From contig JBBEEC010000029.1 in the NCBI GenBank assembly GCA_040880975.1, positions 31,054 through 95,053 on the forward strand: a stretch of 64,000 bases of DNA. The letters run 5' to 3'. The notes beneath the pieces are model-generated. The model was not told the origin of the DNA. It did no database searches and saw only the letters and a list, made by a program, of their open reading frames with translations. This stretch comes from Bacteroidota bacterium (GTDB lineage: Bacteria > Bacteroidota > Ignavibacteria > UBA10030). Below are positions 22,661 through 42,790 of this stretch, one piece after another (the first letter of the stretch is position 1; each line of letters starts with the position of its first letter). Both the position numbers and the translations under genes were made by a program.

Positions 22661-22669
22661 TGTGTTACC

Positions 22670-22978: not shown

Positions 22979-22990
22979 ATTCTTGCTCCT

Positions 22991-23323: not shown

Positions 23324-23399
23324 GCGAGTATAAGATATGTCATTTCTGATATATAGTCAACACGGCGCAAACGAACGTCTAACACGCCCAATCCCGAAG

Positions 23400-24801: not shown

Positions 24802-25437
24802 ATGACCCAACCGACACCTCCGACAGAGTCCCAACCAAGCGAGCGGCAGAAAAAGAGATATGAGGTTTCGCTCGATACGCGGAAGTTTGAGATCGATCTG
24901 TTTTGGAGGCGTGCTCTCTTCTTCTGGGGGTTCATTGCCTCTGCCTTCGTAGCTTATGCAGCGTTTTCGAAGGATAGACCCGACGGTCCAACGATTTCTC
25001 TGATAATTTCTCTGTTTGGTCTGGTGTGCTCATTCAGTTGGACTCTTGTAAATCGTGGATCCAAATACTGGCAAGAGAACTGGGAATCGCAAGTTGACAA
25101 AGATGAAGATGCCGTCACAGGCCCGCTATTCAAACAACCCGCCGAACGTCAAAAGAAAGGTTGGTTTGGTGCTCAGAAGTTTTCAGTGAGCAAGCTTGCA
25201 ATTGCCTTAAGCGACTATGTTACGCTCGTTTGGGCTCTACTAATACTCCGCAGTGTGAGAGAAATACCCACAGTCAAGCGATTCTTGGAGGCGGACTGTT
25301 GGCCGTTTCATCTTCAAGACGATACCCTTGTTCTTGTCTTTCTTGTGTTCACGCTCGCTTGGTTGATATTTGTATTTATAAAGAGTGGAACAACAGAACG
25401 AACGCCGGGCGCTGGCGGCGCATCAACAACAGTCTAA
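24802..25437 (+). CDS. hypothetical multi-TM protein (possible SLATT-like 2TM effector; unverified)
   Basis: 211 aa. TM helices ALFFWGFIASAFVAYAAF and TISLIISLFGLVCSFSWTLV are followed by KYWQENWE and a C-terminal helix LVLVFLVFTLAWLIFVFI. Confidence 0.5.
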   Translation: MTQPTPPTESQPSERQKKRYEVSLDTRKFEIDLFWRRALFFWGFIASAFVAYAAFSKDRPDGPTISLIISLFGLVCSFSWTLVNRGSKYWQENWESQVDKDEDAVTGPLFKQPAERQKKGWFGAQKFSVSKLAIALSDYVTLVWALLILRSVREIPTVKRFLEADCWPFHLQDDTLVLVFLVFTLAWLIFVFIKSGTTERTPGAGGASTTV

Positions 25438-26170: not shown

Positions 26171-26926
26171 TTGCCGAAAAGATCTATGAATTCAGATTGG
26201 CGTAGTCTATTGCCAAAAGAACTCGGCCCACTGCCATTCGACGGTGTGCTCACCAGAACGGAAGCCAACGGGTCAATTGATGCTCCCGTTACAGTGCTCG
26301 GAGTTTATCCCGCAGCAGTGCAGTGGCGTCATTTTGTTCGTGATGGAGTCAGGTTGAATTTGCCATCGAAAGTCGAAGAGCACTCTTTCGACCCCCTGTC
26401 CAAGTCAGGAAGCGACCTGGACAAACTCTACTTGCAACCTTTAGGTCTTTCTCGCGGGCATATTCTAGCGGTAGATTTAATGCCGTACTTCTTCGCGAAC
26501 ACTGCGAAGGATTCAAAGAGTCACCGCTCGATGTGGGATAATGTGCGGGACTATACCCGAATTACAGGTCGGAAAACTGCGATCGAACCAAGACCGCCAG
26601 AGGATAAACTCCTGCAAAGGTGTTGGTCGTTACCAGGCAATCAATCCCGTCTTCAAGAATATATTGCGCGAAAATCAGCTCGACTTCTTTTCACGCTTGG
26701 CAGAGAAGCAGCTGCATATGTTCGAGGACATAACCGTGCGATTGATGGACAACAGTATCTTTATTCCAAACCCAAAACGCTCGACCTTTTCGACAACTCT
26801 ATTCTCACCGTTCATTTTGTTCATCCAGGGAATCTTCAACGTTCCAATAACGGGAAGTGGAAAACAACCCACATCGATTGGTGCATAGAATCAGGCCGCG
26901 GATTTGTCAAGTCAGTTTTAGGATGA
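26171..26926 (+). CDS. hypothetical protein with uracil-DNA-glycosylase-superfamily-like motifs
   Basis: VTVLGVYPAA resembles UDG motif A (beta-strand + GxxPx, as in GQDPY/GEAPG). ILTVHFVHPGNL resembles motif B (HPSP) near the C-terminus. The ~190-aa spacing fits a UDG fold. Confidence 0.4.
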   Translation: MPKRSMNSDWRSLLPKELGPLPFDGVLTRTEANGSIDAPVTVLGVYPAAVQWRHFVRDGVRLNLPSKVEEHSFDPLSKSGSDLDKLYLQPLGLSRGHILAVDLMPYFFANTAKDSKSHRSMWDNVRDYTRITGRKTAIEPRPPEDKLLQRCWSLPGNQSRLQEYIARKSARLLFTLGREAAAYVRGHNRAIDGQQYLYSKPKTLDLFDNSILTVHFVHPGNLQRSNNGKWKTTHIDWCIESGRGFVKSVLG

Positions 26927-27078
26927 CGAACCCCCCGACACACGTACGCGAGCTGCGCCGACCGGTGTAAAAAAGGCAGACGACAGGCTCTTGTTGGTTC
27001 GCACCGCAATACGCCCGACGTTTGGTACCATGCCCCGCGAGAACTTGTCTTGCTGAACCGACTGGACGGAGAGTGCAA

Positions 27079-27687
27079 ATGATATCACCGACTCCTCAGA
27101 ATATTCCAAATGAAACCACCGTGCAGGATCTATCAAACCACTACCTGCTATCGTCGCTGCACAGTAGGTCGGCGTGGATATATTGCCCGACTCGACAAGA
27201 GGAGATCCGACTAGGTTATGACGCCTCACTCCAAAACGGGAAGACCGTCCTGCTTCAATACAAATCGCTTAGCTATGCGGGACGATATCTCGTTTCAATT
27301 CGTCTTGACCAGAGACAATTAGCGACTCTGCTTACCAATTTTCCCCAACGGACCACTCCGTATCTCTATTATGGGTTTTGCGACTACCGGTCTTATCGAG
27401 AATTAGACAACGATTTTCTGACAGTGGGCTCTCCAGAATTCTTTAGGCACATGTTGTTCATTGACATCCATTCTCTCGCACCGAATACGCATACTATCCG
27501 TCGTCACAACGATGGAAGCATGACCGGCTTCCCGAGCCAGCAGCAGTTGATTCCAGTGCGAGGACCGAGGATTGCTCAGGGAATCAGAACTTGCACGATT
27601 GGTACGCCAAATAGCAAGAATATGCTTCGGACCCTTCGAGACCGTATTCGAGGATTCACATTGTCAGTGTTGCGTTATGTCCCCTAG
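27079..27687 (+). CDS. hypothetical protein
   Basis: Internal Met (MISPTPQNIP) of the 221-aa ORF. No recognisable motifs. It is co-directional with neighbours. Confidence 0.4.
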   Translation: MISPTPQNIPNETTVQDLSNHYLLSSLHSRSAWIYCPTRQEEIRLGYDASLQNGKTVLLQYKSLSYAGRYLVSIRLDQRQLATLLTNFPQRTTPYLYYGFCDYRSYRELDNDFLTVGSPEFFRHMLFIDIHSLAPNTHTIRRHNDGSMTGFPSQQQLIPVRGPRIAQGIRTCTIGTPNSKNMLRTLRDRIRGFTLSVLRYVP

Positions 27688-27956: not shown

Positions 27957-30900
27957 ATGAGCGCATTAAGAGACAACTACGCTAAAGGCACTGTCGGAGA
28001 ATTCCTTAAGGAAGTAATCCGACCGGGCTCAAAGCTCTCTTTCGTGTCTGCATACTTCACGATCTATGCCTACCAGCAACTGAAATCCCAACTGGATGGA
28101 ATCGATCATCTTCGATTTCTGTTTGGTGAGCCAAGGTTCATCAACTCGATTGACCCTTCGAAAACCAATCGCCGTGAATTCAGAATCGATGATGATCAAC
28201 TTGTGATTCCGATTGAAAACCGAATGTCACAAAAAGCGACTGCCAAGGAATGTGCCGAATGGATCAGCAAGAAGGTTGCTATCAAGTCGATGGTCAAGCC
28301 GAACTTCCTCCACGGTAAGCTCTATCATTTGGAAAACCCCAACGGAACAAAAGAATCCATCATGGGAAGTTCCAACTTCACTGTGAGCGGCCTCGGATTA
28401 GGTGGAAGGCACAATATTGAATTAAACATGGTCATCCAGGACCGCCGGGATGCAAACGAACTCGAAGAGTGGTTCAACGGCCTCTGGAACAATCAGGATG
28501 GCCTGGTAGAGGATGTTAAAGAACAGGTGCTGAAGTACCTCGATCAGTTTTATGTCGAAAATGAGCCGGAATTCATCTACTACAAGACCCTGTATCACAT
28601 TTTTGAGAAGTTTCTCGGCGAGCAAGACAAGGGGGGCCTCCTCAACAAGCAGATTGGCTTTTTCGAGAGCGAGATCTGGAGCATGCTTTACGACTTCCAG
28701 CAAGATGGCGTGAAGGGTGCGATCAACAAGATCCTGAAACACAACGGTTGCATTATAGCAGACAGCGTCGGTTTGGGAAAAACCTTCGAGGCCCTTGCTG
28801 TCATTCGCTATTTCGAGCTCCTGAACTGCCGAGTGTTGGTTCTGGTCCCGAAAAAACTCTCCAGCAACTGGACAGTATATCAAGCTGCACAAAACAACAT
28901 CCTTAATCCATTTCGCAAGGATCGTTTCAATTACACCGTCTTATATCACACGGACCTTGGCAGAGTACAAGGTGTTTCCGACGCAAACGGGATCGATCTT
29001 GAACGCTTCAACTGGGGTGCTTACGACCTCGTTGTCATAGACGAAAGCCACAACTTCCGCGGCAATCCTACGGAGAGAACAACCGATGACGGGGAAATCC
29101 GATTGAACCGTGCGAAGTGGTTGATGGAAAAGATCATTAAGGAAGGCACCAAAACGAAGGTCCTCCTGCTTTCGGCGACGCCGGTAAACAACAATCTACG
29201 TGACCTTAGAAATCAACTATTGCTCATCACCGAGGGACGCAAGGATGCATTGTTTGAAGCAACCCAGATAAAGGACATTGAACTTGCATTGAAGAATGCT
29301 CAGACCCAGTTCACGAATTGGGCTGACGCCAAGAAAAATCCTGTTCGAACCGTCAAGCAGTTGCTGGAACGGCTTGATTCCTCATTCTTCAAGCTCCTCG
29401 ACGAGATGACTATCGCTAGGAGCCGCAGGCACGTCAAGAGCTTCTACAACATCAAAGCGGTTGGAAGGTTTGCCGATCGATTGAAGCCACACGCTATCTA
29501 TCCGAGCATTGATGTGAAGGATCGATTCTTCACATATGATGCGTTGAATAAGAAGATCCTGGAATACAAGCTGTCCGTCTTCAATCCCTCAGCATATGTT
29601 AAGCCGGAAATGCAAAAGAAGTATGAAGATCTCGGTGCCGGGCAGGTTCTTGCATTCACCCAGAGCGACCGCGAGAATTTCCTCATCGGCATGATGAAGG
29701 TCAACTATCTCAAACGACTCGAAAGTTCGATCGAATCGTTCGAGATTTCTCTTGACCGCACAATTCGTAAGATCGAAGACCTTGAGAAACGCATTGCTGA
29801 ATTCAAGAAAGCGAAGCCAAATGGACAACAGGTGGATATAGGAGCGGCACAGCCTGAAGAAGACGAGTTTGAGGAGAATGCCGATGATCTGGAACAGTGG
29901 CAGGTGGGCAAGAAATTCAAGGTCGATATGGCCGATCTTCTATTGGACGATTGGCTAAGGGACCTCAATGCCGACAAGCAAGCTCTTTCCGTTCTCTATA
30001 ACGGTGCGGTTGCCGTAACTCCCGATCGGGATGCAAAGCTCAAAGAACTGAAAGACCAAATCGAAAAGAAGATTGAGCATCCTTTAAATGGCATCAACGA
30101 CAAGGTGATCGTGTTCACCGCTTTTGCCGATACAGCTGATTACCTGTACGGATGTCTCAAGGACTGGACAAGAAACGACCTGAAGAAACATATTGCCTTG
30201 GTGGCAGGCAGCTTCACAAAGACAACGCTGGGAAGAAATGATTTCGGAAACATTCTCACCAACTTCTCTCCCATTTCAAAGGACCGCGCCCGGCTTTCCG
30301 AAATGCCTCAGGGTGATGAAATTAGTATCCTGATTGCCACAGATTGCATCAGCGAAGGTCAGAATCTGCAGGATTGCGACTATGTGATCAACTATGACAT
30401 CCATTGGAATCCTGTTCGCATCATTCAGCGGTTTGGGCGCGTTGACCGCATAGGAACCAGGAATGAGAAGATTCAGCTTGTCAATTTCTGGCCTACAAAA
30501 GACCTCGACAATTATATCAATCTAAAAGAACGCGTTGAGGCTCGAATGGCCCTGGTGGACGTGACCGCAACCGGCGAAGACAATATCCTCAACACAGATC
30601 AACTTGAAGAACTGATAGAAGAAGACCTTAAGTATAGGAATCAGCAGCTGAAACGGCTGCGGGATGAAGTGCTTGACCTGGAGGATATGAACGAAAGCGT
30701 CACATTGACTGATTTTACGCTCGACGATTTCCGCGTCGAATTGACAAACTATATCGAGAGCAACAGGAAGCGACTCGAGGAAGCCCCGTTTGGTCTATAC
30801 GCGGTTGTCCCATCTCCATCAGGGGAGCATTCCAACGTTTTGGACGTGACTGCCTTCTCTGCGGCGGAAAGGGCAATTATCAAACCGGGTGTCGTGTATT

Positions 30901-31289
30901 GTTTGAAACAAAAAGGCGACACCGATGGCACCGAAGAAGTGAATCCTCTCCAGCCCTACTTCCTTGTCTACATTTGGGATGACGGACAAGTCAGGTTCAA
31001 CTACACCAATGCCAAGCAAATATTGGAGATCTATCGTCTGATGTGCCAGGGGCGAACCGAAGCCTTCCAAGGTCTGTGTGATCTCTTCAATGAAGAAACA
31101 CAACACGGAAAGAATATGTCGGCCTATACCGAGCGCCTGCAGAAAGCAGTGGAGGAGATCGTGCGTGTATTCAAGAAGAAGATGACACAGCGGATTACCA
31201 CAGACCGCGGTGGATTGATCATGCCGAAGTCAAAACAGGTGGATGAAGTCAACAATTTCGAGCTTGTCTCATGGTTGATTATTCGCTGA
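27957..31289 (+). CDS. PLD-family (HKD) nuclease fused to SNF2-family helicase (DISARM DrmD-like with DrmC-like PLD N-terminus)
   Basis: A single HKD motif is present: NFLHGKLYHLENPNGTKESIMGSSNFTVSGLG. SF2/SNF2 motifs I (ADSVGLGKTFEALAV), II (LVVIDESHNFRG), III (LLLSATPVNN) and V/VI (YDIHWNPVRIIQRFGRVDRIG) are also present. Length is 1110 aa. Confidence 0.8.
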   Translation: MSALRDNYAKGTVGEFLKEVIRPGSKLSFVSAYFTIYAYQQLKSQLDGIDHLRFLFGEPRFINSIDPSKTNRREFRIDDDQLVIPIENRMSQKATAKECAEWISKKVAIKSMVKPNFLHGKLYHLENPNGTKESIMGSSNFTVSGLGLGGRHNIELNMVIQDRRDANELEEWFNGLWNNQDGLVEDVKEQVLKYLDQFYVENEPEFIYYKTLYHIFEKFLGEQDKGGLLNKQIGFFESEIWSMLYDFQQDGVKGAINKILKHNGCIIADSVGLGKTFEALAVIRYFELLNCRVLVLVPKKLSSNWTVYQAAQNNILNPFRKDRFNYTVLYHTDLGRVQGVSDANGIDLERFNWGAYDLVVIDESHNFRGNPTERTTDDGEIRLNRAKWLMEKIIKEGTKTKVLLLSATPVNNNLRDLRNQLLLITEGRKDALFEATQIKDIELALKNAQTQFTNWADAKKNPVRTVKQLLERLDSSFFKLLDEMTIARSRRHVKSFYNIKAVGRFADRLKPHAIYPSIDVKDRFFTYDALNKKILEYKLSVFNPSAYVKPEMQKKYEDLGAGQVLAFTQSDRENFLIGMMKVNYLKRLESSIESFEISLDRTIRKIEDLEKRIAEFKKAKPNGQQVDIGAAQPEEDEFEENADDLEQWQVGKKFKVDMADLLLDDWLRDLNADKQALSVLYNGAVAVTPDRDAKLKELKDQIEKKIEHPLNGINDKVIVFTAFADTADYLYGCLKDWTRNDLKKHIALVAGSFTKTTLGRNDFGNILTNFSPISKDRARLSEMPQGDEISILIATDCISEGQNLQDCDYVINYDIHWNPVRIIQRFGRVDRIGTRNEKIQLVNFWPTKDLDNYINLKERVEARMALVDVTATGEDNILNTDQLEELIEEDLKYRNQQLKRLRDEVLDLEDMNESVTLTDFTLDDFRVELTNYIESNRKRLEEAPFGLYAVVPSPSGEHSNVLDVTAFSAAERAIIKPGVVYCLKQKGDTDGTEEVNPLQPYFLVYIWDDGQVRFNYTNAKQILEIYRLMCQGRTEAFQGLCDLFNEETQHGKNMSAYTERLQKAVEEIVRVFKKKMTQRITTDRGGLIMPKSKQVDEVNNFELVSWLIIR

Positions 31290-31296
31290 ATCAAGA

Positions 31297-34200
31297 ATGA
31301 ACGAAGACATCAAGAGAAGAATTGAGCAGTCTCTTAGGTCGTTTGCGCAGGGAGACCTGACCAAGAATTCCATTGGTCTCTTCCAGACGCTCGGGTATGC
31401 AACGGATCGGCAAGCGCCTCTCGACAAACCAACGTACTCAAATTTCAAAGACTCCTTTGTTCAGGTTGACTCTCGATTCAACGAGGAGAAGGCCCAGACA
31501 AAGGAATGGAAGTGCGTTAACCTTCTCTTCCAGCTAACAAAGGACGAAGTCTCCCGGGACAAGTCGTTGTTTGATACGAAGCAGGTTGACCGCACGATTA
31601 TCGAGACATACCTGTTCTTTGTTATCGAACTCGCACGGCCAGAGTACAGCCGGACAGCTCTTAGCCACATCACACGTGAAGTGAACCGGCTTTTTCCGAT
31701 GCCGACATTAGTTCTCTTCAAACATGGCGGCTCGCTAACACTCTCTGTGATTGACCGACGGTTGCACAAGCGGGATGAAGCGAAAGATGTGCTGGAGAAA
31801 GTTACGTTGATCAAAGATATCAACATCACCTCCCCGCATCGCGCACACATTGACATACTGTTTGACCTCTCACTCCCTGAACTCACGCGCCGGCACTCGC
31901 CGACAAACTTCGTTGAACTGCATGGGGCATGGCGGGCAACGCTCAACATATCCGAACTGAACAAGAAATTTTACAGGGAAATCGCTGCGTGGTATTTTTG
32001 GGCTGTTCGGAGTGTCAAATTCCCACTTCCCTCGAAGGCTACAAACGAGAAGGCCAACCGAGAAATCAACGTCATTCGATTGCTCACCCGTCTCATATTC
32101 GCCTGGTTTCTCAAGGAGAAGAATCTTCTGCCAGATGACTTGTTTGACCGAATGGCCTTATCAAAGCTCCTAAGAGAATTCGATCCAACTAGCGGCAAGA
32201 AGTCAGTCTACTACAAGGCAATTCTACAGAACCTCTTCTTCGCCACACTCAACCAGAAGATGAATACGAAGGAGGAGCCGGACAATCGGCGCTTTCGGTC
32301 GAACAAACGTGGCTATCACAACTATTCTGAAGACTACGGTGTCAAGAATCTTTATCGTTATGAAGAATTGTTCTCTGACACCGGGACGGCTTTGAATTTG
32401 TTTTCTTCAGTTCCGTTCCTCAATGGTGGTCTGTTTGATTGCTTGGATAAGGAGGATCCCGACAAGAAAAACCTCATTGTGCACATCGATGGGTTTTCGG
32501 ATGTGCCGGCAAACCAACCAACGGTTCCAGATGAGGTGTTCTTTGGCCAAGAAGGCGAAATCGATCTCAGCGAGGTATACGACGATAGAAGGAAAAAGCA
32601 CGAACGGGTTCGTGGCTTGGTCCACATTCTGAAGGATTATAAGTTCACAATCGCTGAGAACACTCCGGTTGAAGAAGAAATTGCCCTCGATCCGGAATTG
32701 CTTGGCCAGATCTTTGAAAACCTCCTTGCCGAATACGTTCCCGAAACGGGAACAACGGCACGAAAACGGACCGGGAGTTTCTACACACCCCGCGAGATTG
32801 TCAATTATATGGTCGACGAAAGCCTCCTTGCATACTTAAGAGAGAAGATGCTGCGGGAAAATCCCGCGATCCTTGATGTTGGATCTGAACAGAGTGACGC
32901 TTTCGGCAACAAGGCACGCAAGGGACAACTAAGACTTGAACACAAGTTGGAGCCCAACCGTTGGCACAAAATCTCGGAAAAGCTGGACAACGAGTTGCGG
33001 AAGCTCCTCTCGTATACCGATGAATCTCTCGACTTCACAGAGCGGGATACGGAAGCCTTGATAGAAGCAATTCATTCCATGAGAGTGCTTGATCCCGCAT
33101 GTGGCTCGGGTGCCTTTGTCATGGGTGTCCTCCTCAAAGTTGTACACGTGCTTCACAAACTGGACCCTGAGAACAGTCGTTGGAAGGAGCAACAGCTTGC
33201 CGCCGTAAAGGACATGACCGCCGCCGATCTTCGTCGTGGGACCGTTGAGAGAATAGAGGAGGCCTTCAGTGCACAGAACAACTACGCCGACTACAGTCGC
33301 AAGCTCTTCCTGATCGAGGATTGCATCTACGGCGTAGACATCCAACCCATTGCTGTTCAGATTGCCAAGCTCAGATTCTTTATTTCACTGCTTGTTGACC
33401 AAAAGAACAACGATCAGAAACCAAATCGTGGTGTGCTTTCGCTCCCGAACCTTGAGACAAAGTTCGTTGCTGCCAACACACTTGTCAGCCTTGGCGGACA
33501 GGATGTACTCAAGCCCAAGGAGTTTCATGAGTTTGAAGAGAAGCTGAGGCGAGTGCGGCATGAATATTTCAATGCACGGACACGAAAGGACAAGCTGCAC
33601 TGCATCGAGGAGGACCGGAAACTAAGGCTAGTAATAGCGGAAACTCTAAAAAATCTTGGAATGCCCAAAAGTGTCATTGAGCTTCTGGCTCATTGGGACC
33701 CGTACGATCAGAATGGTGTAGCCGGTTTTTTCTCTGCAGATTGGATGTTCAGCCTCGACAAGGGTTTCGACGTTGTTATCGGCAATCCTCCTTACCTTCG
33801 AGTGCAGGGTTTGCAACAAACCCAACCGGAGTTCATTCCATACTACCGCGAGCGATACAAGTCAGCTACCGGCAATTTTGATCTCTATGCACTATTCATC
33901 GAGCGCGGATACGAACTTCTGTCCATAACCGGCATGCTCGCGTACATTGTTCCCCACAAGTTCTTCCAGGCCAGTTTTGGAGAAGGGTTGCGCCGTTTAC
34001 TCACGGCAAAGAAAGCGCTGGCACAAGTGGTTCGCTTCGGCGCCGCGCAAGTGTTTGAGGAATCGACGACGTACACATGCCTTCTCTTCTTGTCAGCAAA
34101 GGAACAAAGGGAGTTTGATCTCCTTGAAGTTAAGAGCCTTGAGAATGGTGAAGAGGTGCTCCAACACGCACGATGGAGGAATCAGCACCCGGAATACGTT

Positions 34201-35325
34201 TTTGAAACTCTACCAGAACCTGAGAAAACTGATTGGGATTTCTCAATCGGGGAATCTGGCCAAATACTGAAGCGAATGCATCAGCATCCAAAGAAGTTGG
34301 GCGAGCTAACTCATAAGATCTTCCAAGGCCTCGCCACCAGTGCGGATAAGCTTTACGTATTGGAAATCCGACATGAGGAAGAAAACACATATCGCTGCTA
34401 CTCAAGATATAATGAAACGGAATTCGAAATTGAGAAAGCTCTCGTGAAGCCGTTTCTAATGGGCAAAGATGTCCACAGGTACGAACCTGCTGTTGCCCGA
34501 AACGTTGTGATTTTTCCATACCATATCGATGAAGATACTCCCAAGCTAATGACCGCCGCATTCCTAAAGAAGGAGGCACCGTTAGGATGGAAATACTTGA
34601 AGGGAAATAGAGACGCCCTTGCCGGACGTGAAAGGGGGAAGATGGACCATGAGGAATTCTATGCCTACATCTATCCCAAGAACCTCACCGCCTTCGAATC
34701 GATCAAGATCATGACACCGGAAATTTCCCTCGGTTGCAACATGACGCTTGACTTCGAGGGGAGGCTCTACCACACCACAAAGGTCTACAGCTTTGTATTC
34801 AAAGACACCAAGAAGACTCCAACAAAGTATATGCTCGGTTTGCTCAACTCGAGAGTCCTATGGTTCTTTCTCATGAAGACGGGGTACGTGTTGCGTGGAG
34901 GGTACTACACTTTCAAAACGGATTACTTAAAACCATTCCCAATCCCAGATTCCAGCAAAGAACATCAGCAATCAATCGAAACACTTGTTGAATACGTCCT
35001 GCATTTAAAGGCAAAACCAGGAAGGGGCCCATCCGAGACGGCTCAAACTGACCTGATGACAGCATTTTTCGAGCAGCTTATCGATGGGATTGTTTACGAG
35101 TTGTACTTCCCAGAGGAATTCAAGAGCCTCGATCGAAGCGTTGCCCGTATGCTGGCTCATAACCCAATGCCCCCCCTTGCAAGCCTCAAAGGAAACAAGA
35201 AGGATGCAATTGAGGGGGTCTTCAAGAATGTGTATGACCGGGAATCAGAAATCAGAAAGGCGTCGTTCTTCATCGAGTCCATTGAATCTGCTCGGATCAT
35301 TGAGAATGCGACACGGAAGAAATGA
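31297..35325 (+). CDS. gamma-class N6-adenine DNA methyltransferase, Eco57I/PglX/DrmMI-like, with long N- and C-terminal (target-recognition?) extensions
   Basis: Motif X FYTPREIV, motif I VLDPACGSGAFV and motif IV VVIGNPPYLRV are present. Length is 1342 aa. The gene starts 8 bp after the helicase stop. Confidence 0.85.
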   Translation: MNEDIKRRIEQSLRSFAQGDLTKNSIGLFQTLGYATDRQAPLDKPTYSNFKDSFVQVDSRFNEEKAQTKEWKCVNLLFQLTKDEVSRDKSLFDTKQVDRTIIETYLFFVIELARPEYSRTALSHITREVNRLFPMPTLVLFKHGGSLTLSVIDRRLHKRDEAKDVLEKVTLIKDINITSPHRAHIDILFDLSLPELTRRHSPTNFVELHGAWRATLNISELNKKFYREIAAWYFWAVRSVKFPLPSKATNEKANREINVIRLLTRLIFAWFLKEKNLLPDDLFDRMALSKLLREFDPTSGKKSVYYKAILQNLFFATLNQKMNTKEEPDNRRFRSNKRGYHNYSEDYGVKNLYRYEELFSDTGTALNLFSSVPFLNGGLFDCLDKEDPDKKNLIVHIDGFSDVPANQPTVPDEVFFGQEGEIDLSEVYDDRRKKHERVRGLVHILKDYKFTIAENTPVEEEIALDPELLGQIFENLLAEYVPETGTTARKRTGSFYTPREIVNYMVDESLLAYLREKMLRENPAILDVGSEQSDAFGNKARKGQLRLEHKLEPNRWHKISEKLDNELRKLLSYTDESLDFTERDTEALIEAIHSMRVLDPACGSGAFVMGVLLKVVHVLHKLDPENSRWKEQQLAAVKDMTAADLRRGTVERIEEAFSAQNNYADYSRKLFLIEDCIYGVDIQPIAVQIAKLRFFISLLVDQKNNDQKPNRGVLSLPNLETKFVAANTLVSLGGQDVLKPKEFHEFEEKLRRVRHEYFNARTRKDKLHCIEEDRKLRLVIAETLKNLGMPKSVIELLAHWDPYDQNGVAGFFSADWMFSLDKGFDVVIGNPPYLRVQGLQQTQPEFIPYYRERYKSATGNFDLYALFIERGYELLSITGMLAYIVPHKFFQASFGEGLRRLLTAKKALAQVVRFGAAQVFEESTTYTCLLFLSAKEQREFDLLEVKSLENGEEVLQHARWRNQHPEYVFETLPEPEKTDWDFSIGESGQILKRMHQHPKKLGELTHKIFQGLATSADKLYVLEIRHEEENTYRCYSRYNETEFEIEKALVKPFLMGKDVHRYEPAVARNVVIFPYHIDEDTPKLMTAAFLKKEAPLGWKYLKGNRDALAGRERGKMDHEEFYAYIYPKNLTAFESIKIMTPEISLGCNMTLDFEGRLYHTTKVYSFVFKDTKKTPTKYMLGLLNSRVLWFFLMKTGYVLRGGYYTFKTDYLKPFPIPDSSKEHQQSIETLVEYVLHLKAKPGRGPSETAQTDLMTAFFEQLIDGIVYELYFPEEFKSLDRSVARMLAHNPMPPLASLKGNKKDAIEGVFKNVYDRESEIRKASFFIESIESARIIENATRKK

Positions 35326-37160
35326 GAATAAAGCAGATCGAAATCAAAGACTTCAAAGCATTTGCTGGTGAATACCCTTCTATCAAGCTTGATGGAAAGA
35401 GTTTGCTGGTATATGGCGAGAACGGGAGCGGCAAATCATCACTTGCACAAGCGCTGGACCAATTTGTAGAAACATCGACTGGAATGTTGAAGTTTGGCGA
35501 CTTCAAGAACATCTTTGCGCATGCTAATGATGGGTTCGTAAAGCTGACTTGCGAAGGCTTCGACGCTGCGGGAAATCCCGATCCAGAGAATGGCATCTAT
35601 GAGTGGTCAGAAACCTCTGATATGGTTGGCCAGGATCTCTTTGTTGACGCCTCCAAGACAAAGGGATTTCTTGACTACAAACGTTCACTCGCTGTCTATT
35701 TGCATCCAAAAGACGCGAATAGGATCGATGTTTTCGACCTCTTGATGCGGAACTTGCTTTCGCGATTTGTGAATCCGGTGAGCCGCTCAACCTTTGGAGA
35801 TGAACTTGGGGTGATGGAGCAACGCGTAAGGGCCTACTGGTATCAAGGCAACCTGAACGTCCTCAAAAGGCATTTGAGAGATTTTAATGCTGGTTTATCA
35901 GCAGTTCTTAAGGAATTGAACACCAAGGCTTCCGACATTCTCACAGAATTCGAAACAGGTGTCACCATCAGATTGGCACCTGCAAGGCTTTCTTATGGGC
36001 GGCCGCCGAAACGCTTGAAGAGGTCGCACATCGGGCTGTTTGTCCAGTACTACGGAAGAAAAATTCATCAACCTCATCTGTTTCTGAACGAAGCCAGATT
36101 ATCGGCTGTTGCCATTTCCATTTTCCTTGGTTCAATGCTGATTCAGCCATCAAGCAAGATCAAACTTCTTATCCTGGATGACATGCTCATCGGGTTGGAT
36201 TTTTCCAACCGAATGCCGTTGTTGAATGTGTTGAAAAAGCACTTCAATGACTACCAAGTGTTTATGTTGACATTTGACAGAAATTGGTTTGAGATCGCAA
36301 AGGCACTTCTGGCAAATGGCTGGGGAGCTTGTGAGATGTACGTGAGCGAACACAAGGAAGGCCCAGTCGGCGCCGAGGTAGTCATCGGTAACAAGCCTCA
36401 AATCGTCCAACCTTCAGACAGCTATCTTGACAAGGCGAAAAAGTACTTTGAAGCATTCGATTATCCAGCTGCGGCAAACTACCTTAGGAAGCGATGTGAA
36501 GAGTTGATCGACGATCTGCTTCCACTCTCCTACAAGATCGAACCGACCAACGGCTTTGGATCGAGGGAAATAACAAAACTGGATGGATTGATTGACAGAT
36601 TAAAGATGCTCTTCGAGGACTGTGAGGAATCAGCACCTCGTGCAGTTGAAAGCTTATTAAGGCTTCTCAAGAAGGCTACACTAAATCCGATGTCGCACCA
36701 CGATCTCGAGAGTCCAATCTACAGGGTTGAAGTTGAGCAGCTCTTTGATCTTGTGGACGAACTTGCCAACTTACCGAGATTGAAAAGACAGATTTGCCTC
36801 AAGGCCGGAAGCAGAGCTGCATATCATTTCACGGATGCCACGCGCGAATACAGCATCGATATAGAGCTAGTTGCAGACCTGCTTGTGATCACTGTGAACG
36901 GCAATAGTCGGTTTAACAAAGCGAAGTGGAAGATAGCAACGTGGGCGCTGAATGGGGTTGAGTTCTCTAGCATGGATCTCGCAAACCATCAGAGGCTAGG
37001 ACCTGATATCATCGAGAAAACGTGCGCCCAAGAGAGGCATCTCGAAGGAATAGCGAATGGTGTGTTTGGACCGCGTGGACTTGCCGTCACCCCACCGCGG
37101 GATGTCTTGGCGGAATTCAAAGTGACGAATGGTGGTACGTTGAGGGACTTGTTAGAGTAA
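35322..37160 (+). CDS. ABC/SMC-like (AAA_15/AAA_21-type) ATPase
   Basis: The N-terminus IEIKDFKAFAGEYPSIKLDGKSLLVYGENGSGKSSLAQAL carries Walker A, and KIKLLILDDMLIGLDFSN carries Walker B plus D-loop. The start ATGA overlaps the methyltransferase stop. Confidence 0.7.
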   Translation: MRIKQIEIKDFKAFAGEYPSIKLDGKSLLVYGENGSGKSSLAQALDQFVETSTGMLKFGDFKNIFAHANDGFVKLTCEGFDAAGNPDPENGIYEWSETSDMVGQDLFVDASKTKGFLDYKRSLAVYLHPKDANRIDVFDLLMRNLLSRFVNPVSRSTFGDELGVMEQRVRAYWYQGNLNVLKRHLRDFNAGLSAVLKELNTKASDILTEFETGVTIRLAPARLSYGRPPKRLKRSHIGLFVQYYGRKIHQPHLFLNEARLSAVAISIFLGSMLIQPSSKIKLLILDDMLIGLDFSNRMPLLNVLKKHFNDYQVFMLTFDRNWFEIAKALLANGWGACEMYVSEHKEGPVGAEVVIGNKPQIVQPSDSYLDKAKKYFEAFDYPAAANYLRKRCEELIDDLLPLSYKIEPTNGFGSREITKLDGLIDRLKMLFEDCEESAPRAVESLLRLLKKATLNPMSHHDLESPIYRVEVEQLFDLVDELANLPRLKRQICLKAGSRAAYHFTDATREYSIDIELVADLLVITVNGNSRFNKAKWKIATWALNGVEFSSMDLANHQRLGPDIIEKTCAQERHLEGIANGVFGPRGLAVTPPRDVLAEFKVTNGGTLRDLLE

Positions 37161-37374
37161 TGGATAGCGAGGGAACCATCGCATTTCGCCTATTGAGTTT
37201 CGCACAGGTGATGGTACCGCAAATAGGGGAAAAGGGCTTCATATCTCGGTGGCAACAATGCCGATGTCACCGAGCGGCTTTGTCCTGAGTGCCAGCGTGG
37301 GATGCCGGGGATAGGGTAGTGGATATGATGGGACTCAATAGTACAAATCGAGAGATCGACCGGATTGTGCACAT

Positions 37375-38658
37375 ATGACAGACAACAAAAAGACGTTCAT
37401 CCACGCCGACGACGAAACGCTGATCATGCTAATCGGCAATGCGCGTCAGCGTTTGGTCTTCATTGCGCCGGGAGTGAGAAAAACGGTAGCTCAAGCCCTT
37501 GCGTCCTCGATGGATGTTGTTCCTGTGGAAGCTATCCACCTGGTCGTTGATGCCGATCCCGAGGTTTGCCGACTCGGGTACGGTAGCTTGAACGGCCTGG
37601 AGCTTCTGCAATTCGCGGCTGGCCAGCACAACCTCGTGTTGAACAATCACCCTGGTATTCGCATAGGCCTTCTCATTGCAGATGAAGCTACACTCATTTA
37701 TAGTCCCACACCGTTGCTTATAGAGGGAGGCTCGCAAACACCGAACAAGCCCAACGCGGTTATATTGGACGCCCAGTTGCCTCAGGCGCTTGCGGATGCT
37801 TGTGCTGCAGGAGAGCGACAGGGTGCGAAATTGGAGGTTGGAAGGGATGTGGTTGACGCTGGGAAACTGGACGCGGTCAAACGGGATTTGCTTGAAAGAC
37901 CTCCCAAAAAGTTCAATGTTGCTCGGGTGGAGCGCGTATTCAATTCCATGTTGCACTACGTCGAGCTGCGGATTGAGGACTACAAACTCACCAGTCGGTC
38001 GCTCGCGCTCGATGCAAAGCTCTTCGGAGTGACGAATCCCGAGGTTGTGCGGCGGTTGCGGAATCGATACACCCTGTTTGCCGATACTGAATCCCTCAAT
38101 GTTGAGATCGAATCGCTCGATGCCGACGGGAAAGCCAATCCGAAAAAGACGAAAGAGAAGTTTGGCCCGCGCAGTATAGACGAGGAGCGTCAACGGATCA
38201 AAAAAAGGTTCATCCTGGAGGCTGGGGATTATGGATTGATCATCCTGCGCAAGGATGTAGAAGAGTTTGAGAAGCAGATCAATGCGCTGAGATCAAAGAT
38301 TGAAGCCTACAAGAAGGCGGTTCAGACGGAGATTGCGCGCCGAACGGATGAGATCGTTATTGAGCTACTCGCAGCTCTAAAGGACGCTCTGAAAGCCAAT
38401 CCACCAGAGCATTGGCGTTCCCGCTACATGGGTGAGACGCCGGCTGACGCCGATATCGAGCGATTGTTTCAAGAGGAGATACGAGCCGAAGTGAAGCGGG
38501 TCAACACAGATTTCAATCCACGCGTGTTTCATGCGTTCAAGGACGTGACATACAAGACATTCAAGGATGAGAAGTTCCGCAAACTTCTAGAAGTCCGGTT
38601 TGGCAAGGACGCCATTGATCGTATATTTTCCGAGCATGATGCAGCACCGGAAGAATAG
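37375..38658 (+). CDS. hypothetical protein, possible Toprim-like N-terminus (speculative), coiled-coil middle
   Basis: 427 aa. The N-terminus FIHADDETLIMLIG...AIHLVVDADPEVCRLGYG is a candidate Toprim E...DxD pattern. No other motifs are recognised. Confidence 0.4.
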   Translation: MTDNKKTFIHADDETLIMLIGNARQRLVFIAPGVRKTVAQALASSMDVVPVEAIHLVVDADPEVCRLGYGSLNGLELLQFAAGQHNLVLNNHPGIRIGLLIADEATLIYSPTPLLIEGGSQTPNKPNAVILDAQLPQALADACAAGERQGAKLEVGRDVVDAGKLDAVKRDLLERPPKKFNVARVERVFNSMLHYVELRIEDYKLTSRSLALDAKLFGVTNPEVVRRLRNRYTLFADTESLNVEIESLDADGKANPKKTKEKFGPRSIDEERQRIKKRFILEAGDYGLIILRKDVEEFEKQINALRSKIEAYKKAVQTEIARRTDEIVIELLAALKDALKANPPEHWRSRYMGETPADADIERLFQEEIRAEVKRVNTDFNPRVFHAFKDVTYKTFKDEKFRKLLEVRFGKDAIDRIFSEHDAAPEE

Positions 38659-38847: not shown

Positions 38848-39246
38848 ATGCCCCAAGCGGAGATTTCCGGAATATCACCTTTTTTTATCGTGAGCAACGT
38901 GCCGTCGTCGCTTTCGTTCTACCGGGACCGGCTTGGATTTGAAGTCACCTTCCAGGGGCCTTCTCCGGACGATATCTTCTTCGGAATTGTCCGCAGGGGC
39001 GGTGCACAGATCCTGCTCAAAGACGTTGGCGTAGCTCCTCTTCCGAACTATAAGCGAGACGTCGGAAAAGGGTTCGCCCGGTGGGACGCATTCGTTGTCG
39101 TCCCGGATCCTGATGCACTTGCGGCCGAATTTGCCTCGCGCAATGTGGAGTTTTCCGAACCGCTGAATGACACCGAAGACGGCCTGCGTGGTTTCGAGGT
39201 CAAGGACCCCGATGGCTATGTCTTGTTCTTCGGCCGTCCCCGATAA
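38848..39246 (+). CDS. VOC-family glyoxalase/bleomycin-resistance-like protein
   Basis: 132 aa with a glyoxalase-like fold signature. Its 3' half and downstream sequence are duplicated at 41439-41700, and a remnant lies at 40219-40285. Confidence 0.65.
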   Translation: MPQAEISGISPFFIVSNVPSSLSFYRDRLGFEVTFQGPSPDDIFFGIVRRGGAQILLKDVGVAPLPNYKRDVGKGFARWDAFVVVPDPDALAAEFASRNVEFSEPLNDTEDGLRGFEVKDPDGYVLFFGRPR

Positions 39247-39249
39247 ATC

Positions 39250-40700
39250 CGTTCCTACCAGGAAATAGAACACGCCTGCGTGCCGAAACAGTTATTGAAT
39301 CTGGAAGAGTACCAAATCACTCCGGCGTGCCCGCCTGAACGACGTAGTCGGGCAGGCCTCCGGCACGCAGGCAGGGATTGACGCGGATATATCATACGAT
39401 TCCGGCGATTTACCTGTGCACTCCGTGATCCTCCTGTAGTTTGCCTTCTACGCGCCCTGAGCCCCCGTCCCAAAGGGGAGGGGCGAAAATACGAAATCAC
39501 AATATCGAAATACAAAACAATATTAAAATACTAAATCTCAAACATCTCGGTTTTGAGGATTAGACATTAGAATTTGTTTCGCCCGCCCCTTTCTTGCTTG
39601 ACAAGGGCCAGGGAATTTCGTGTTTATGATTTCGGATTTTAATCGCACGGTGGGTGACAGATGGTCTGTTCCCCCTAATGGATATTCCATGGAGGGGTCC
39701 CTTCGGGAAAAATTTCGGCCCCTTTCATCGCCCCGGGATAAATCCCGGGGCTAGATCACCTCACGTAGAGCACAATTCCCCTAAAGGGGAATCCAAACCG
39801 TAAAACAGAAAACGACAAAGAACAAACTGAAATCAAACAGAAAGAAGAAAACAGAAATTAACAGCGGAGGGGGGTGGGATTTCTGAACAACAATTCCTTC
39901 ACTGCGCGTGCCATTTACTCGCCCTGAGCTCCCGAAATTTCGGCGGTGCGGTGAGGTCTTCCCCTGCAGTGCGTTAAATTCCGGCACAGTTTGAACAACT
40001 CTTTCGGTACGGAGACTGTTTAAGTGCCGGAATTTCGGATCAATTAAGCCTTATCCCAGGTGTGCGGTGGGTGACAAATGGTGTGTTAAATTTCGGCGCC
40101 CTTTTCTTTTCGTCCATTTTCTTTTGGGCGAACAAAAGAAAATGGACTCGCCGAAGGCAACTAGCCGAACAAAGGTCCAATCACCAGACTCCCCCTCATC
40201 CAACAACCCCTTTCGAAGGGTCTGCGTGGCTTCGAGGTCAAGGACGCCGACGGCTATGTCTTGTTCTTCGGCCGTCCAAGGTGATGAGCGTCGAGCCAAA
40301 TGGCGTCGAGGACCGCGACTTCTGACTTCTGACCTCCGACGTGTCCCTATTCGGTCGCCCCTACGGGGCTATATCCAGTTATCGTTATACTCTGCTACCA
40401 GAAGGCCGTCCCTAAAGGGACTGTTGTCTGACACACTGACCTCCGAACTCTGACTCGGCCGCTCCTATCCCGAAGGGATCCCTTTGGGACGGAGCTTCCT
40501 GTGTTTGTGTTAGATTCTTTTCTACCAATAGATCGCCCCGCCCGACCGAACAATGCGATAGCTCAAACGGTCGTTCGGGCGGGCCCTACGGGGCTTTTCG
40601 GATTTCCGACCTCTGACCCTTCGCTTCGCTCAGGGCATGCTTCCGACCTCGGACTTCCGACCTCGGACTTCCGACTTCCGACCTCCGATGTGTCCCATAT
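39250..40700. repeat. repeat mosaic (A-rich 190-bp element copy 39750-39960, GACTTCC/GACCTCC heptamer tracts, REP-like hairpins) incl. ~110-nt element with 12-bp terminal stem at 39262-39372
   Basis: Shares long identical stretches with 21930-22170, 23640-23760 and 42350-42530. Confidence 0.75.
40219..40285 (+). pseudogene. remnant of glyoxalase gene 3' end (GLRGFEVKDADGYVLFFGRP*)
   Basis: Near-identical to 39183-39246. Confidence 0.5.
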
Positions 40701-40711
40701 CGAGGATATCA

Positions 40712-41017
40712 TTATGGCGGATCGACCGGCGGACTCTCCGGTTCAAAATCCATAAGCCGCTTGTTTATTTTCTTTGCCGTTTTCTTGTTGGAACAATAGA
40801 ACTGATCCCGACTCATTCCACATTGACGGATCATGCTCGCCATCAGATCAGCCCAGAATTCATCCACCCCCATGTCAACTGTTACAATTCGCCTCTTTCC
40901 GCCAAAATATCCCTCATAATTCTCATGGCTACCCTCATGACTTTTATAGGCAAAACCCCGGGCTTTGAGGATGGCAATTACTTCTTGCGGCGAGAGAGGC
41001 GGGTATTTCTTAGGCAA
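40712..41017 (-). CDS. hicA: HicA-family mRNA interferase toxin
   Basis: The N-terminus MPKKYPPLSPQEVIAILKARGFAYKSHEGSHENY is typical of HicA/YcfA. The gene is adjacent to hicB. Confidence 0.7.
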   Translation of the reverse strand: MPKKYPPLSPQEVIAILKARGFAYKSHEGSHENYEGYFGGKRRIVTVDMGVDEFWADLMASMIRQCGMSRDQFYCSNKKTAKKINKRLMDFEPESPPVDPP

Positions 41018-41327
41018 GATTCAATCGGCGGGATGTGGGGTCGTAATCACCGGAAAAGGTGATCGTATCCCAAGCCCGTGTCATGAATCCGAGAAGCATG
41101 ATAACATTCCACCGCGCACGATGAATCAACGGTGCCTTCCGAATGAACTCTCCCCTCATGATTTCATCGACATCAAATGACTTGAGGTAGACTAAGAGTG
41201 CATCTCTCATCTTGCGCTCAACTTCCGCTAATGAATGCCCCTGTACTGCAATATCTGTTTCAAGGCAAATGGCGAAGAACCCATCTCCACTCTTGCGCCC
41301 TACAATCCTTAAATGGATTGACTGCAT
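41010..41327 (-). CDS. hicB: HicB-family antitoxin (UPF0150)
   Basis: 105 aa with an RNase-H-like HicB N-domain pattern (...FFAICLETDIAVQGHSLAEVERKMRDAL...). It overlaps hicA by 8 nt. Confidence 0.65.
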   Translation of the reverse strand: MQSIHLRIVGRKSGDGFFAICLETDIAVQGHSLAEVERKMRDALLVYLKSFDVDEIMRGEFIRKAPLIHRARWNVIMLLGFMTRAWDTITFSGDYDPTSRRLNLA

Positions 41328-41381
41328 GGGTGACTACTCCTTTAACTTTGGATTCCGGGGAAAATTCCCCCTAAACTGAGT

Positions 41382-41669
41382 GTGTCAAGCATGTTGATCA
41401 CAACGAAGATAAACCTAAAATCGCTGCAAGTCAAGCCACGCAAAGACGTTGGCGTAGCTCCGCTTCCGAACTATAAGCGAGACGTCGGAAAAGGGTTCGC
41501 CCGGTGGGACGCATTCGTTGTCGTCCCGGATCCTGATGCGCTTGCGGCCGAATTTGCCTCGCGCAACGTGGAGTTTTCCGAACCGCTGAAAGACTCCGAA
41601 GACGGCCTGCGCGGTTTCGAGGTGAAGGACACCGATGGCTATGTCTTGTTCTTCGGCCGTCCCCGATAA
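41382..41669 (+). pseudogene. 5'-truncated duplicate of the glyoxalase gene (homology begins at KDVGVAPLPNYKRD)
   Basis: 76 C-terminal residues are ~96% identical to 38848-39246. The 19-aa N-terminus is unrelated. Confidence 0.6.
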
Positions 41670-41699
41670 ATCCGTTCCTGCCAGGAAATAGAACACGGA

Positions 41700-42790
41700 A
41701 AAAGCGGATTAGACGGATTGTTACGGATAACGAATCCTCCAATTCGAGGCAAGGGGAATGGGGAACAAATCCGAAATCACAAATTCCAAATACGAAACAA
41801 TATCTAAGAATAAAATTCTAACGTATGCAATTCCTGTGCCCTAGCCCCGAAATTGTGGCTGTGCGGGGAGGAATTCAATAGCAGTGCGTTAAATTCCGGC
41901 GCAGATTCATCCATGATTGAGAATTGATTCAACGTCGGGCGCCGGAATTTCGGAATGTTTAAGCTCAAACACTGTTGTGCTGAGGGTAACATAAGGTGCG
42001 TTTCAATTTCGGAAGAATGTTCTCTTTGCTACTTTTCCCGCTCTTTGGATCCCGCCATGAGCGGGATCCTGGGAGGCGGGACTCTTTTGAAGAGAAAGTA
42101 GACTAGCGCTAGCAAATGGTCGAGATTAATCCAACAGATCGGGCTTATTCCCTCTTGAACATCCTCATCCAAAGTGCCTCGCCGTAGGCCCAGAGCCGAT
42201 CAATGACTCACCCAGTCTTCCCCTCATCCCCCCGCCAAAAATCGTGTCGGGCAGGCCAACCCCTTTCGAAGAGAAGTAGACCAACGTTCGCAGATGGCTG
42301 AGAATTCACAATGGTCGCAGTCTTATCGACGGGATTTGCAGACCTTACTGCCAGGAAATAGAACACGCCTGCGTGCCGAAACAGTTATTGAATCTGGAAG
42401 ATTACCAAATCACTCCGGCGTGCAGGCACGGAAAAATCGGATTAGACGCCTGCCTGCCGGAGTGCCCGCCTGAACGACGTAGTCGGGCAGGCCTCCGGCA
42501 CGCAGGCAGGGATTGACGCGGATATATCATGAGAATACTCCGACCTCTGACTCGGTCGCCCCTACGGGGCTACGACGGATCGGTTTGTGTTATTCTTTCT
42601 ACCAACAGACCGCCCCTACGGGGCTCAATCCGTGAATCCTTCTTTCTTCTTACTGATTTCTGCCTACCTCCTAAAATGCTTCCCCATCTGACTTCTGACC
42701 TTCCGCCTGCGCCCTACGGGCTTCGGCGGACAGGCCGACCTCTGACCTTGCGCTCGACCTGAATTTAGTCTATATTATGGTCGACCCAAA
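41700..42790. repeat. repeat mosaic incl. copies of the 70-bp palindromic element (42018-42090), ccagagccgatcaatgac unit, the ~110-nt stem element (42350-42530) and GACCTCT heptamer/ccctacgggg hairpin units
   Basis: Direct matches to 22418-22595 and 39259-39420. Confidence 0.75.

Follow-up and report, generated by a model that had tools for sequence, protein, structure and literature searches.

Positions 27957-38658 of the 64,000-nucleotide (nt) stretch of DNA analysed here (the window; part of contig JBBEEC010000029.1 of the Bacteroidota bacterium assembly GCA_040880975.1) contain four co-directional open reading frames (ORFs), g1 to g4, which we read, with a probability of roughly 0.6, as a composite defence locus consisting of a two-gene, ATP-dependent, restriction-modification (RM)-like core (g1 and g2) and two separable accessory genes (g3 and g4). 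The core teams a Type IIG-derived methylase with an HKD-SNF2 motor and, by analogy with characterized enzymes, its closest functional counterpart would be a split Type ISP or Type III enzyme. The g1-g2 pair is widespread and unnamed, and follows familiar RM logic.

All four genes lie on the forward strand. The first, g1 (27957..31289, 1110 amino acids (aa)), encodes a fusion of an HKD-type phospholipase D (PLD) nuclease to an SNF2 translocase and is the putative restriction subunit of the core pair. The second, g2 (31297..35325, 1342 aa), joins a DUF4391-like N-terminal domain, a helical connector, a gamma-class N6-adenine (N6A) methyltransferase and a TaqI_C domain, and is the putative modification/specificity subunit. 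The optional third gene, g3 (35322..37160, 612 aa), encodes an ABC ATPase head of the SMC/Rad50/RecF type followed by all-alpha and beta domains, and g4 (37375..38658, 427 aa) is a separate, conserved accessory gene whose N-terminal PLD-fold domain has no HxK and is followed by an alpha/beta region and a long helix. ORF calls and a motif check placed the four co-directional ORFs, and every motif quoted in an initial annotation of this DNA, at their exact positions, and Pfam agreed with its domain calls of a PLD-SNF2 protein, a gamma-class adenine methyltransferase and an ABC ATPase. The overlap of the g2 stop and g3 start codons as ATGA was also as described; the g1/g2 spacer is 7 nt, not 8 bp, and a gap of 214 bp between g3 and g4 had gone unmentioned. 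The extensions of g2, put at ~450 aa (N-terminal) and ~500 aa (C-terminal), came out at ~480 and ~390 aa, with the C-terminal part holding the TaqI_C recognition domain. The view of the locus as a single four-gene operon gave way in the neighbourhood surveys, which split it into the g1 and g2 core, g3, and g4.

g1 and g2 recur as a pair across genomes

Neighbourhoods of g1 relatives were surveyed through a profile scan with one genome per species, yielding 80 loci (g1 identity 41-73%) in which ORFs were called and then searched with hidden Markov models of g1 to g4. Each neighbourhood survey in this study comprised at most 80 loci, selected by similarity. Taxa in the g1-anchored loci include Clostridia, Selenomonas, Marinobacterium and the archaeon Methanobrevibacter. 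A g2-like methylase of 1150-1560 aa was found downstream of the g1 relative in 55 of the 80 loci, and in 20 a free-standing gene for a ~250-aa DUF4391 protein stood there instead (Pfam E-value 2.8e-62 in the scanned example); the remaining five had 1 kb or less of downstream DNA. A DUF4391 or DUF4391-like partner is present beside the g1 relative in all 75 of the informative loci.

Pairwise identities of g1 and of g2 correlate (r = 0.80), and the two genes co-evolve and behave as a unit. Both of the two best g2-like matches on plasmids have an SNF2/helicase gene directly upstream. As the order g1, g2, g3 recurs in dozens of unrelated genomes, this arrangement is not due to chance. The locus of the closest g1 relative (89% identity) reads g1-YhcG-g2-transposase, without g3 or g4. 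Homologues of the Type IIG enzyme Cj0031 have been listed both with an adjacent PLD+SNF coding sequence and as solitary genes (PMC9881135); our literature search for the pair of HKD-SNF2 protein and g2-like methylase returned no established name and no experiment.

Wherever the downstream DNA reaches far enough, the free DUF4391 gene is followed by a Type III Mod and, after it, a Type III Res, with N6_N4_Mtase followed by ResIII and RE_endonuc domains in L060, the sole locus scanned. Since free DUF4391 and g1 adjoin Type III systems that have their own Res nuclease, the DUF4391 domain tracks g1 and not cleavage. The full layout of HKD-SNF2, free DUF4391, Type III Mod and Type III Res genes was observed at L060 9980-18933 and in about 20 loci of L059-L088, where g1 identity is 41-45%, and the sole plasmid neighbourhood inspected, that of Acinetobacter sp. 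NEB149 pMsp65 (L179), shows the same Type III-linked four-gene layout. It appears that HKD-SNF2 and free DUF4391 are two additions to the gene set of these Type III systems.

The separation of g1 and g2 exceeds 300 bp in 22 of the 55 loci that have both. Many of these inserts hold a gene of an SLFN_AlbA_2/HATPase_c_4 or a YhcG/DUF1016 cluster (one member scanned per cluster), mirroring the embedded genes described for Hma, Type I RM and bacteriophage exclusion (BREX) loci (preprint 10.1101/2024.01.29.577857). In Desulfonema magnum CP061800 (L007), g1 and g2 have between them a gene for a ParE toxin and a 75-aa ORF, unannotated, that may encode its antitoxin (L007 4483-4972), and the g2 homologue is split into pieces of 1233 and 386 aa. 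Other cargo found directly after g2-like genes includes a reverse transcriptase whose start overlaps the g2 stop (L035 16884-18428), a TIR-TPR protein (L023 16828-18921) and a DUF4238 protein (L010 12804-13751). The position after g2 seems to accept defence genes in general, as a docking site.

Nuclease and motor motifs of g1 are invariant

Pfam assigned PLDc_2 (aa 87-177), SNF2-rel_dom (248-425) and Helicase_C (710-833) to g1. The single HKD domain (28215..28487, forward strand; aa 87-177) contains H119, K121 and G137-S-S-N140, within the motifs HGKLYH at 119 and GSSNFT at 137, and the SNF2 ATPase core (28686..30455, forward strand; aa 244-833; Pfam) contains GLGKT at 272, DESH at 362, SAT at 406 and QRFGRVDRIG at 824, the last conforming to QRxGRxxRxG. 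H119, K121, GSSN and all SNF2 motif residues are invariant in the g1 alignment (A1), including the 27%-identical relative in L008. The solved sequences nearest to the SNF2 core are Snf2, RapA and ISWI. A single HKD copy needs dimerisation to form an active site, as established for Nuc and BfiI, so cleavage by g1, with its one copy, would require dimerisation.

The top PADLOC model for g1 is 'C3a139 HKD+Snf2', matched over the full length (E-value 5e-131), a model for a cluster with just four instances, located next to type III CRISPR loci. A homologue search yielded at least 8000 matches, of which the top 120, all at 70% identity or more, span Bacteroidota, Ignavibacteria, Chlorobi, Planctomycetota and Desulfobacteria. 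A g1 relative was also found in 119 plasmid records, mostly from Listeria, Enterococcus, Bacillus, Escherichia and Acinetobacter.

g2 is a methylase with a DUF4391-like domain in the nuclease position

Pfam matches in g2 are Eco57I (aa 676-920), N6_Mtase and TaqI_C (1052-1216). The methyltransferase core (32779..34146, forward strand; Pfam) has its motifs intact (FYTP at 495, DPACGSGAF at 599 and NPPY at 830), and the nearest solved sequences are those of CamA, BseCI, TaqI and PglX. A TaqI_C-type target recognition domain follows at 34450..34944 (forward strand; Pfam PF12950, E-value 5e-11). The top PADLOC model is REase_MTase_IIG (1.7e-91), and residues 208-329 match the connector of PDLC03601, as expected of the helical connector of Type IIG enzymes.

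The position occupied by the nuclease domain in Type IIG enzymes is taken in g2 by the DUF4391-like N-terminal domain (31474..31956, forward strand; aa ~60-220). The Pfam match of the first ~220 residues to DUF4391 is weak (E-value 0.003), and alignment of this domain with the free-standing DUF4391 proteins using hhalign gave a probability of 75% (E-value 2.6e-5). At the nuclease-motif position, the window g2 has D98, E111 and A113, an alanine at the would-be catalytic lysine. The pattern D/E...D/E-x-K is kept in just 6 of 40 g2 relatives and the full motif is missing in the other 34; the strongly conserved residues of the domain are Arg, His and Asn. These residues make g2 an unlikely candidate for a self-sufficient Type IIG enzyme, and because its nuclease motif is unconserved while the HKD and SNF2 motifs of g1 are invariant, cleavage would most plausibly be done by g1 rather than by g2. 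Judging by titles and abstracts, DUF4391 is mentioned in the literature found only in unrelated contexts.

g3 is an optional and exchangeable ABC ATPase

The g3 protein consists of an ABC ATPase head (aa 1-330; Pfam SMC_N at aa 3-329, and AAA_15), an all-alpha domain (368-482) and a beta domain (487-612), and its AlphaFold2 model is confident (pLDDT 84.8). Short-form relatives of ~475 aa are without the beta domain.

The presence of g3 was scored in the 26 g1-anchored loci that had a complete g2 and at least 1.5 kb of downstream DNA. It follows g2 in 9 of them and is absent from 17, with positive loci interspersed among negative ones; L009 and L080, for example, share 83% g1 identity, and g3 is found in L009 only. 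The identities of g3 show no correlation with those of g1 (r = 0.05). A scan anchored on g3 was conducted on metagenome contigs, in which an upstream methylase was scored in 49 loci with at least 4 kb of upstream DNA. A g2-like methylase lies upstream of the g3-like gene in 42 of these (86%), abutting it in 34. Of the 34 loci that extend 7.8 kb or more upstream, 27 have a g1-like helicase; most of these fall into a more divergent subfamily, exemplified by L008. In total, g3 is a mobile, exchangeable module, yet one specialised for the g1/g2 kind of system. Seven exceptions (~14%) lie outside the g1/g2 context: some of those in L120, L141, L155, L143, L154 and L156 come after a ~1000-aa protein with a DUF262-like N-terminus, and others are in loci with a Dcm-type methylase and ~485-aa, ~1230-aa and ~588-aa proteins.

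The all-alpha C-terminal domain of g3 (36423..36767, forward strand) is a candidate HEPN-like RNase domain. It contains R389-x3-E393 and L-N455-P-x-S-H459, both invariant in the g3 alignments A3 and A4. Sub-threshold matches to DUF4145, a HEPN family (PMC3710099), were obtained for 10 of 30 family members, some of which also matched PF05168 HEPN, at 13-19 bits against a cut-off of 23 bits. The Pfam search with the C-terminal domain fragment of the window g3 gave no match, and the profile search of this domain against PDB sequences gave noise only. The catalytic triad of PrrC is Arg320-x3-Glu324...His356 (PMC1484252); this RM-linked ABC-ATPase anticodon nuclease is the paradigm of a second-strike RNase restrained by its RM partner (PMC1484252), and ABC-HEPN proteins have been tied to RM systems as a second strike (PMC3710099, PMC1484252). 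By analogy, our best guess is that g3 plays a PrrC-like role as a second-line sensor/effector, and its C-terminal domain is possibly a HEPN/PrrC-like RNase domain.

g4 is an accessory of several modification-based systems

The g4 family has at least 540 matches at 55-79% identity across phyla. Pfam holds no family for it, and a search of PDB sequences gave no match. Its N-terminal domain has a PLD fold, with SauUSI (PDB 7clg) among the matching PLD-fold structures and weak PLD-fold matches in a viral fold library. The HxK(x)4D motif is absent from the family, whose consensus at this site is H-H-P-G-I-R-I-G-L-L-I-A-D, without a lysine and with variation at the first two positions (N/H and H/Q). 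Because the HKD motif is missing, g4 may bind DNA rather than cut it.

No g4 was found in any of the 160 g1- or g3-anchored loci, and we rejected g3 and g4 as a conserved pair on this count. Relatives of g4 were detected between hsdM/hsdS and hsdR of Type I RM systems, between res and mod of a Type III system, and directly after g2-like methylases without g3 (L175, L174). In one other contig, a g4 relative lies 5 kb from a g2-g3 pair and adjoins an Mrr-domain gene. On the Acinetobacter towneri plasmid NZ_CP090385.1, pglX and pglZ of a BREX-1 system flank a distant homologue of g4 (L178 8986-10242; 24% identity, 98% coverage), whose ends overlap both of these neighbours. These contexts make g4 an independent accessory of modification-based defence systems, usually adjoining a methylase gene.

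A working model and its alternatives

In the composite-locus reading, g2 would recognise a DNA site through TaqI_C and methylate adenine on host DNA, as its intact motifs suggest, and the DUF4391-like domain, going by its co-occurrence with g1, would couple g2 to g1. The SNF2 motor of g1 would translocate on unmethylated foreign DNA, and cutting would occur when two single-HKD domains dimerise, by analogy with Type I, Type III and Type ISP enzymes, SauUSI, and Nuc/BfiI. Translationally coupled to g2 and swappable, g3 would be a PrrC-like second-line sensor/effector released when the RM core is compromised, possibly acting as a HEPN RNase, and g4 would be an independent PLD-fold accessory riding beside the methyltransferase genes of several modification-based systems.

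Several points weigh against this reading. Methylation, cleavage and defence are all predicted for the g1-g2 family from sequence. As the top PADLOC call for g2 is Type IIG, g2 could restrict alone in some lineages, and g3, where it occurs, could also be an integral subunit, to judge from the ATGA overlap and from its 86% linkage to g2-like genes. The HEPN assignment of g3 draws on sub-threshold matches and motif resemblance, and the arginine of the canonical HEPN Rx4-6H motif is a leucine in g3. In addition, the surveys sample a bounded, similarity-selected set of loci.

The alternative that follows from the linkage of g3 to g2 is that g1, g2 and g3 form an obligate three-gene system in this lineage, in which g3 is integral and, rather than being an independent back-up effector, serves the helicase-nuclease as an SMC/Rad50-like DNA sensor, loader or regulator. 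The overlapping g2 and g3 codons favour it, as do the abutting g2-g3 genes in L007-L009 and in 34 of the 49 g3-anchored loci. We nevertheless regard it as unlikely, as g3 is missing from most eligible window-type loci (17 of 26), is likewise not found with the closest g1 relatives, shows no co-evolution with g1, and occurs in ~14% of cases in other contexts with DUF262-like or Dcm-containing neighbours, and as g4 can fill the same slot after g2. We give still less credence to g2 being a self-sufficient Type IIG enzyme of the Cj0031/Eco57I kind, with g1 acting separately, for example as a SauUSI-like ATP-dependent nuclease, or as a mere helper. The co-evolution of g1 with g2, the alanine at the catalytic-lysine position together with the loss of the full motif in 34 of 40 relatives, and the company that free DUF4391 keeps with g1 beside Type III systems with their own Res all speak against this, and have to be set against the Type IIG call by PADLOC, the DUF4391-like domain at the Type IIG nuclease position, the D...E-x-K pattern kept in six relatives, the reported solitary as well as PLD+SNF-associated Cj0031 homologues, and the presence of SauUSI, itself a PLD and helicase enzyme, among the PLD-fold structures.

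The initial annotation had taken the PLD, SNF2 and methylase domains for modules of DISARM (defence island system associated with restriction-modification), including drmD and drmMI, and had suggested that the four genes might form a DISARM-related system not yet described, with a PLD-DrmD fusion and with an ATPase pair, g3 and g4, in place of DrmAB. The four genes are indeed co-directional and close together, and g1 matches DrmD (PADLOC 3e-37; NCBIfam equivalog NF038317, 1.7e-42) and g2 matches DrmMI (PADLOC 4e-23), but all of these matches are partial, the DrmD score of 145.8 bits falls far short of the cut-off of 610, and g2 is matched better by REase_MTase_IIG (1.7e-91) than by DrmMI, for which it did not qualify. 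The absence of drmA and drmB that had been noted held up, with no DrmA, DrmB or DUF1998 signal in g3 or g4. As g3 is optional and uncorrelated with g1, and as g4 was absent from all 160 surveyed loci and shares just two contigs with g3, this one and another in which 5 kb separates them, the proposal is largely refuted. The other option put forward, a split Type ISP-like RM system with PLD in place of Mrr, is near to our reading, for g1 and g2 only. It had also been held to count against a new system if PLD-SNF2 and methyltransferase pairs routinely occurred without the ATPase genes and were classed under a named RM or DISARM subtype; such pairs do routinely occur without the ATPase, and our search found no named subtype for them. 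Comparably improbable is a BREX-like, non-nucleolytic exclusion, with methylation as the mark of self DNA and an SNF2 motor that halts phage replication while leaving the DNA uncut. It is favoured by the methyltransferase core that g2 shares with PglX-type Eco57I enzymes and by the distant g4 homologue embedded in a BREX-1 locus, but PglZ and BrxC are absent, PglX cut-offs were not reached, and the invariance of the HKD residues of g1 down to 27% identity argues for a working phosphodiesterase.

Beyond the composite-locus reading, we tentatively raise a wider one, to which we assign less weight, that the HKD-SNF2 and DUF4391 module is an undescribed and very widespread class of ATP-dependent restriction machinery, plugging into different methyltransferases and recruiting interchangeable back-up modules. 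One form may be fused to a Type IIG-derived methylase with a decayed nuclease and the other bolted onto complete Type III systems, and the back-ups may comprise a PLD-fold protein that trails methylase genes in Type I, Type III, BREX and g1-g2 loci, as well as an ABC ATPase bearing a HEPN-like domain. The HKD-SNF2 module has thousands of homologues, distributed over many bacterial phyla, archaea and plasmids.

Genomic surroundings of the locus

The stretch containing g1 to g4 has a lower GC content (0.47-0.51 versus ~0.54), lies between groES/groEL and dnaG, and also holds toxin-antitoxin pairs. Markers of island ends were missing: the window yielded no tRNA gene, and the scanned ORFs no integrase domain. 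Scans for promoters and terminators were uninformative, which is what a Bacteroidota-type genome would lead one to expect.

Three toxin-antitoxin-like pairs flank the locus: a Gp49/HigB-like gene with a helix-turn-helix partner (22670-23323, reverse strand), HicA with its partner (40712-41327, reverse strand), and a ParE/RelE-like pair (42803-43406, forward strand) that was assigned from translations. The intergenic DNA at 21300-24100 and 39000-42550 is a mosaic of direct repeats of 40-260 nt with 92-98% identity, such as 22003-22165 with 39783-39948 and 23960-24042 with 40090-40172. These repeats hold short palindromes, separate small cassettes (the toxin-antitoxin pairs, the g1-g4 block and a glyoxalase gene) and look like repetitive extragenic palindromes (REP), miniature inverted-repeat transposable elements (MITE) or cassette boundaries. 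The glyoxalase/bleomycin-resistance-family ORF lies at 38848-39246, and its 3' 257 nt are copied 2.4 kb downstream, at 41382-41669, with 96% identity, such that the two copies bracket the HicA/HicB-like pair.

Directly upstream of g1 are a gene of the 8xMP octameric-membrane-protein family (24802-25437; Pfam 4.6e-34), an ORF with a weak match to the UDG superfamily (26171-26926; E-value 0.0019, below the cut-off) and a 221-aa ORF for which no family matched (27022-27687). These three ORFs may be further defence cargo of the low-GC stretch.

Significance

Helicase-nucleases of the g1 type are among the more abundant uncharacterised defence-island proteins, with hosts that include Listeria, Enterococcus, Acinetobacter and E. 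coli. With PADLOC-DB 2.0.0 and NCBIfam, g2 fits Type IIG models best and g1 a CRISPR-neighbour cluster, and the two have no system of their own. If the HKD-SNF2 protein and the DUF4391 protein or DUF4391-methylase are a functional unit, such annotations would be corrected and an RM architecture would be added in which a Type IIG-like methylase has its cleavage outsourced. This would introduce no new principle, as it extends known ATP-dependent RM logic. Both g3 and g4 are candidates for RM-linked second-line immunity after the PrrC paradigm.

Comparison with known systems

Class 1 DISARM shares its domain vocabulary with the locus (PLD, SNF2 and an Eco57I-family N6A methylase). Searches of g3 and g4 with Pfam, PADLOC and NCBIfam, and of the scanned flanking ORFs, revealed no DrmA, DrmB or DUF1998, and membership was rejected on their absence and on the DrmD and DrmMI thresholds. 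BREX was rejected as g2 scored 79.8 bits with the best PglX model (cut-off 400) and neither PglZ nor BrxC was found in the four genes or the scanned flanking ORFs. A DUF499 ATPase and a DUF3780 protein form the centre of Type-2 BREX-related systems, in which an N6 methylase works together with an effector made of a Swi2/Snf2 helicase with an HKD endoDNase at its N-terminus (Rakesh & Krishnan 2026, PMC12839542). The HKD-Snf2 architecture of g1 with an N6 methylase beside it is alike; the assignment was rejected, with no DUF499 or DUF3780 match in g3, g4 or the scanned flanking ORFs. Hma is defined by the m5C methyltransferase HmaB with HmaA and HmaC (PMC8565338), and was rejected as g2 is an N6A Eco57I-type enzyme and the HmaA match to g1 is partial (8e-22). 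MADS was rejected as g2 reached 29 bits with MAD2 (cut-off 720); the best mad3 match covers the P-loop region (residues 2-45).

The protein encoded by g3 resembles PrrC/RloC, associated with EcoprrI, in combining an N-terminal ABC-type NTPase with a small helical domain that contains an invariant R-x3-E...H, and in its genetic linkage to an RM-like system (42 of 49 loci). R389, E393 and H459 all lie in the all-alpha domain, where the HEPN and DUF4145 Pfam matches are all below the cut-off. The spacing from R to H differs (70 residues in g3 versus 36), and the long form of g3 has an extra beta domain.

In architecture, g1 on its own is comparable to SauUSI, an ATP-dependent Type IV enzyme in which a nuclease of the PLD family at the N-terminus is joined to an SF2 motor driven by ATP. 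SauUSI acts on modified DNA and is not known to have a methylase partner. g2 is comparable to the Type IIG enzymes of the Eco57I, MmeI and Cj0031 kind, with which it shares the layout of helical connector, methyltransferase and recognition domain on one chain; it differs in lacking an N-terminal PD-(D/E)xK nuclease with a conserved catalytic D...(D/E)xK motif and in being paired and co-evolving with a separate helicase-nuclease, g1.

The pair as a whole resembles Type III RM systems in its two-subunit, ATP-dependent organization of methylase/specificity protein and helicase-nuclease, and relatives of g1 with free DUF4391 lie directly upstream of Mod and Res. It differs in having an Eco57I/TaqI_C-type methylase and an HKD nuclease; Pfam detected no N6_N4 Mod and no ResIII/RE_endonuc Res in the window. 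Type ISP enzymes (LlaGI and LlaBIII) carry an Mrr nuclease, an SF2 ATPase, a methyltransferase and a recognition domain on a single polypeptide. Here, these functions are split over two proteins, the nuclease is HKD/PLD and not Mrr, the motor is of the SNF2 type and a DUF4391-like domain is added; the PDB sequence search with g2 returned no LlaBIII or LlaGI chain. The likeness to Type ISP lies in the combination itself, in which a nuclease, an SF2 ATP-driven translocase, a gamma-class N6A methyltransferase and a recognition domain are brought together, and in which cleavage would be expected after translocation and collision.

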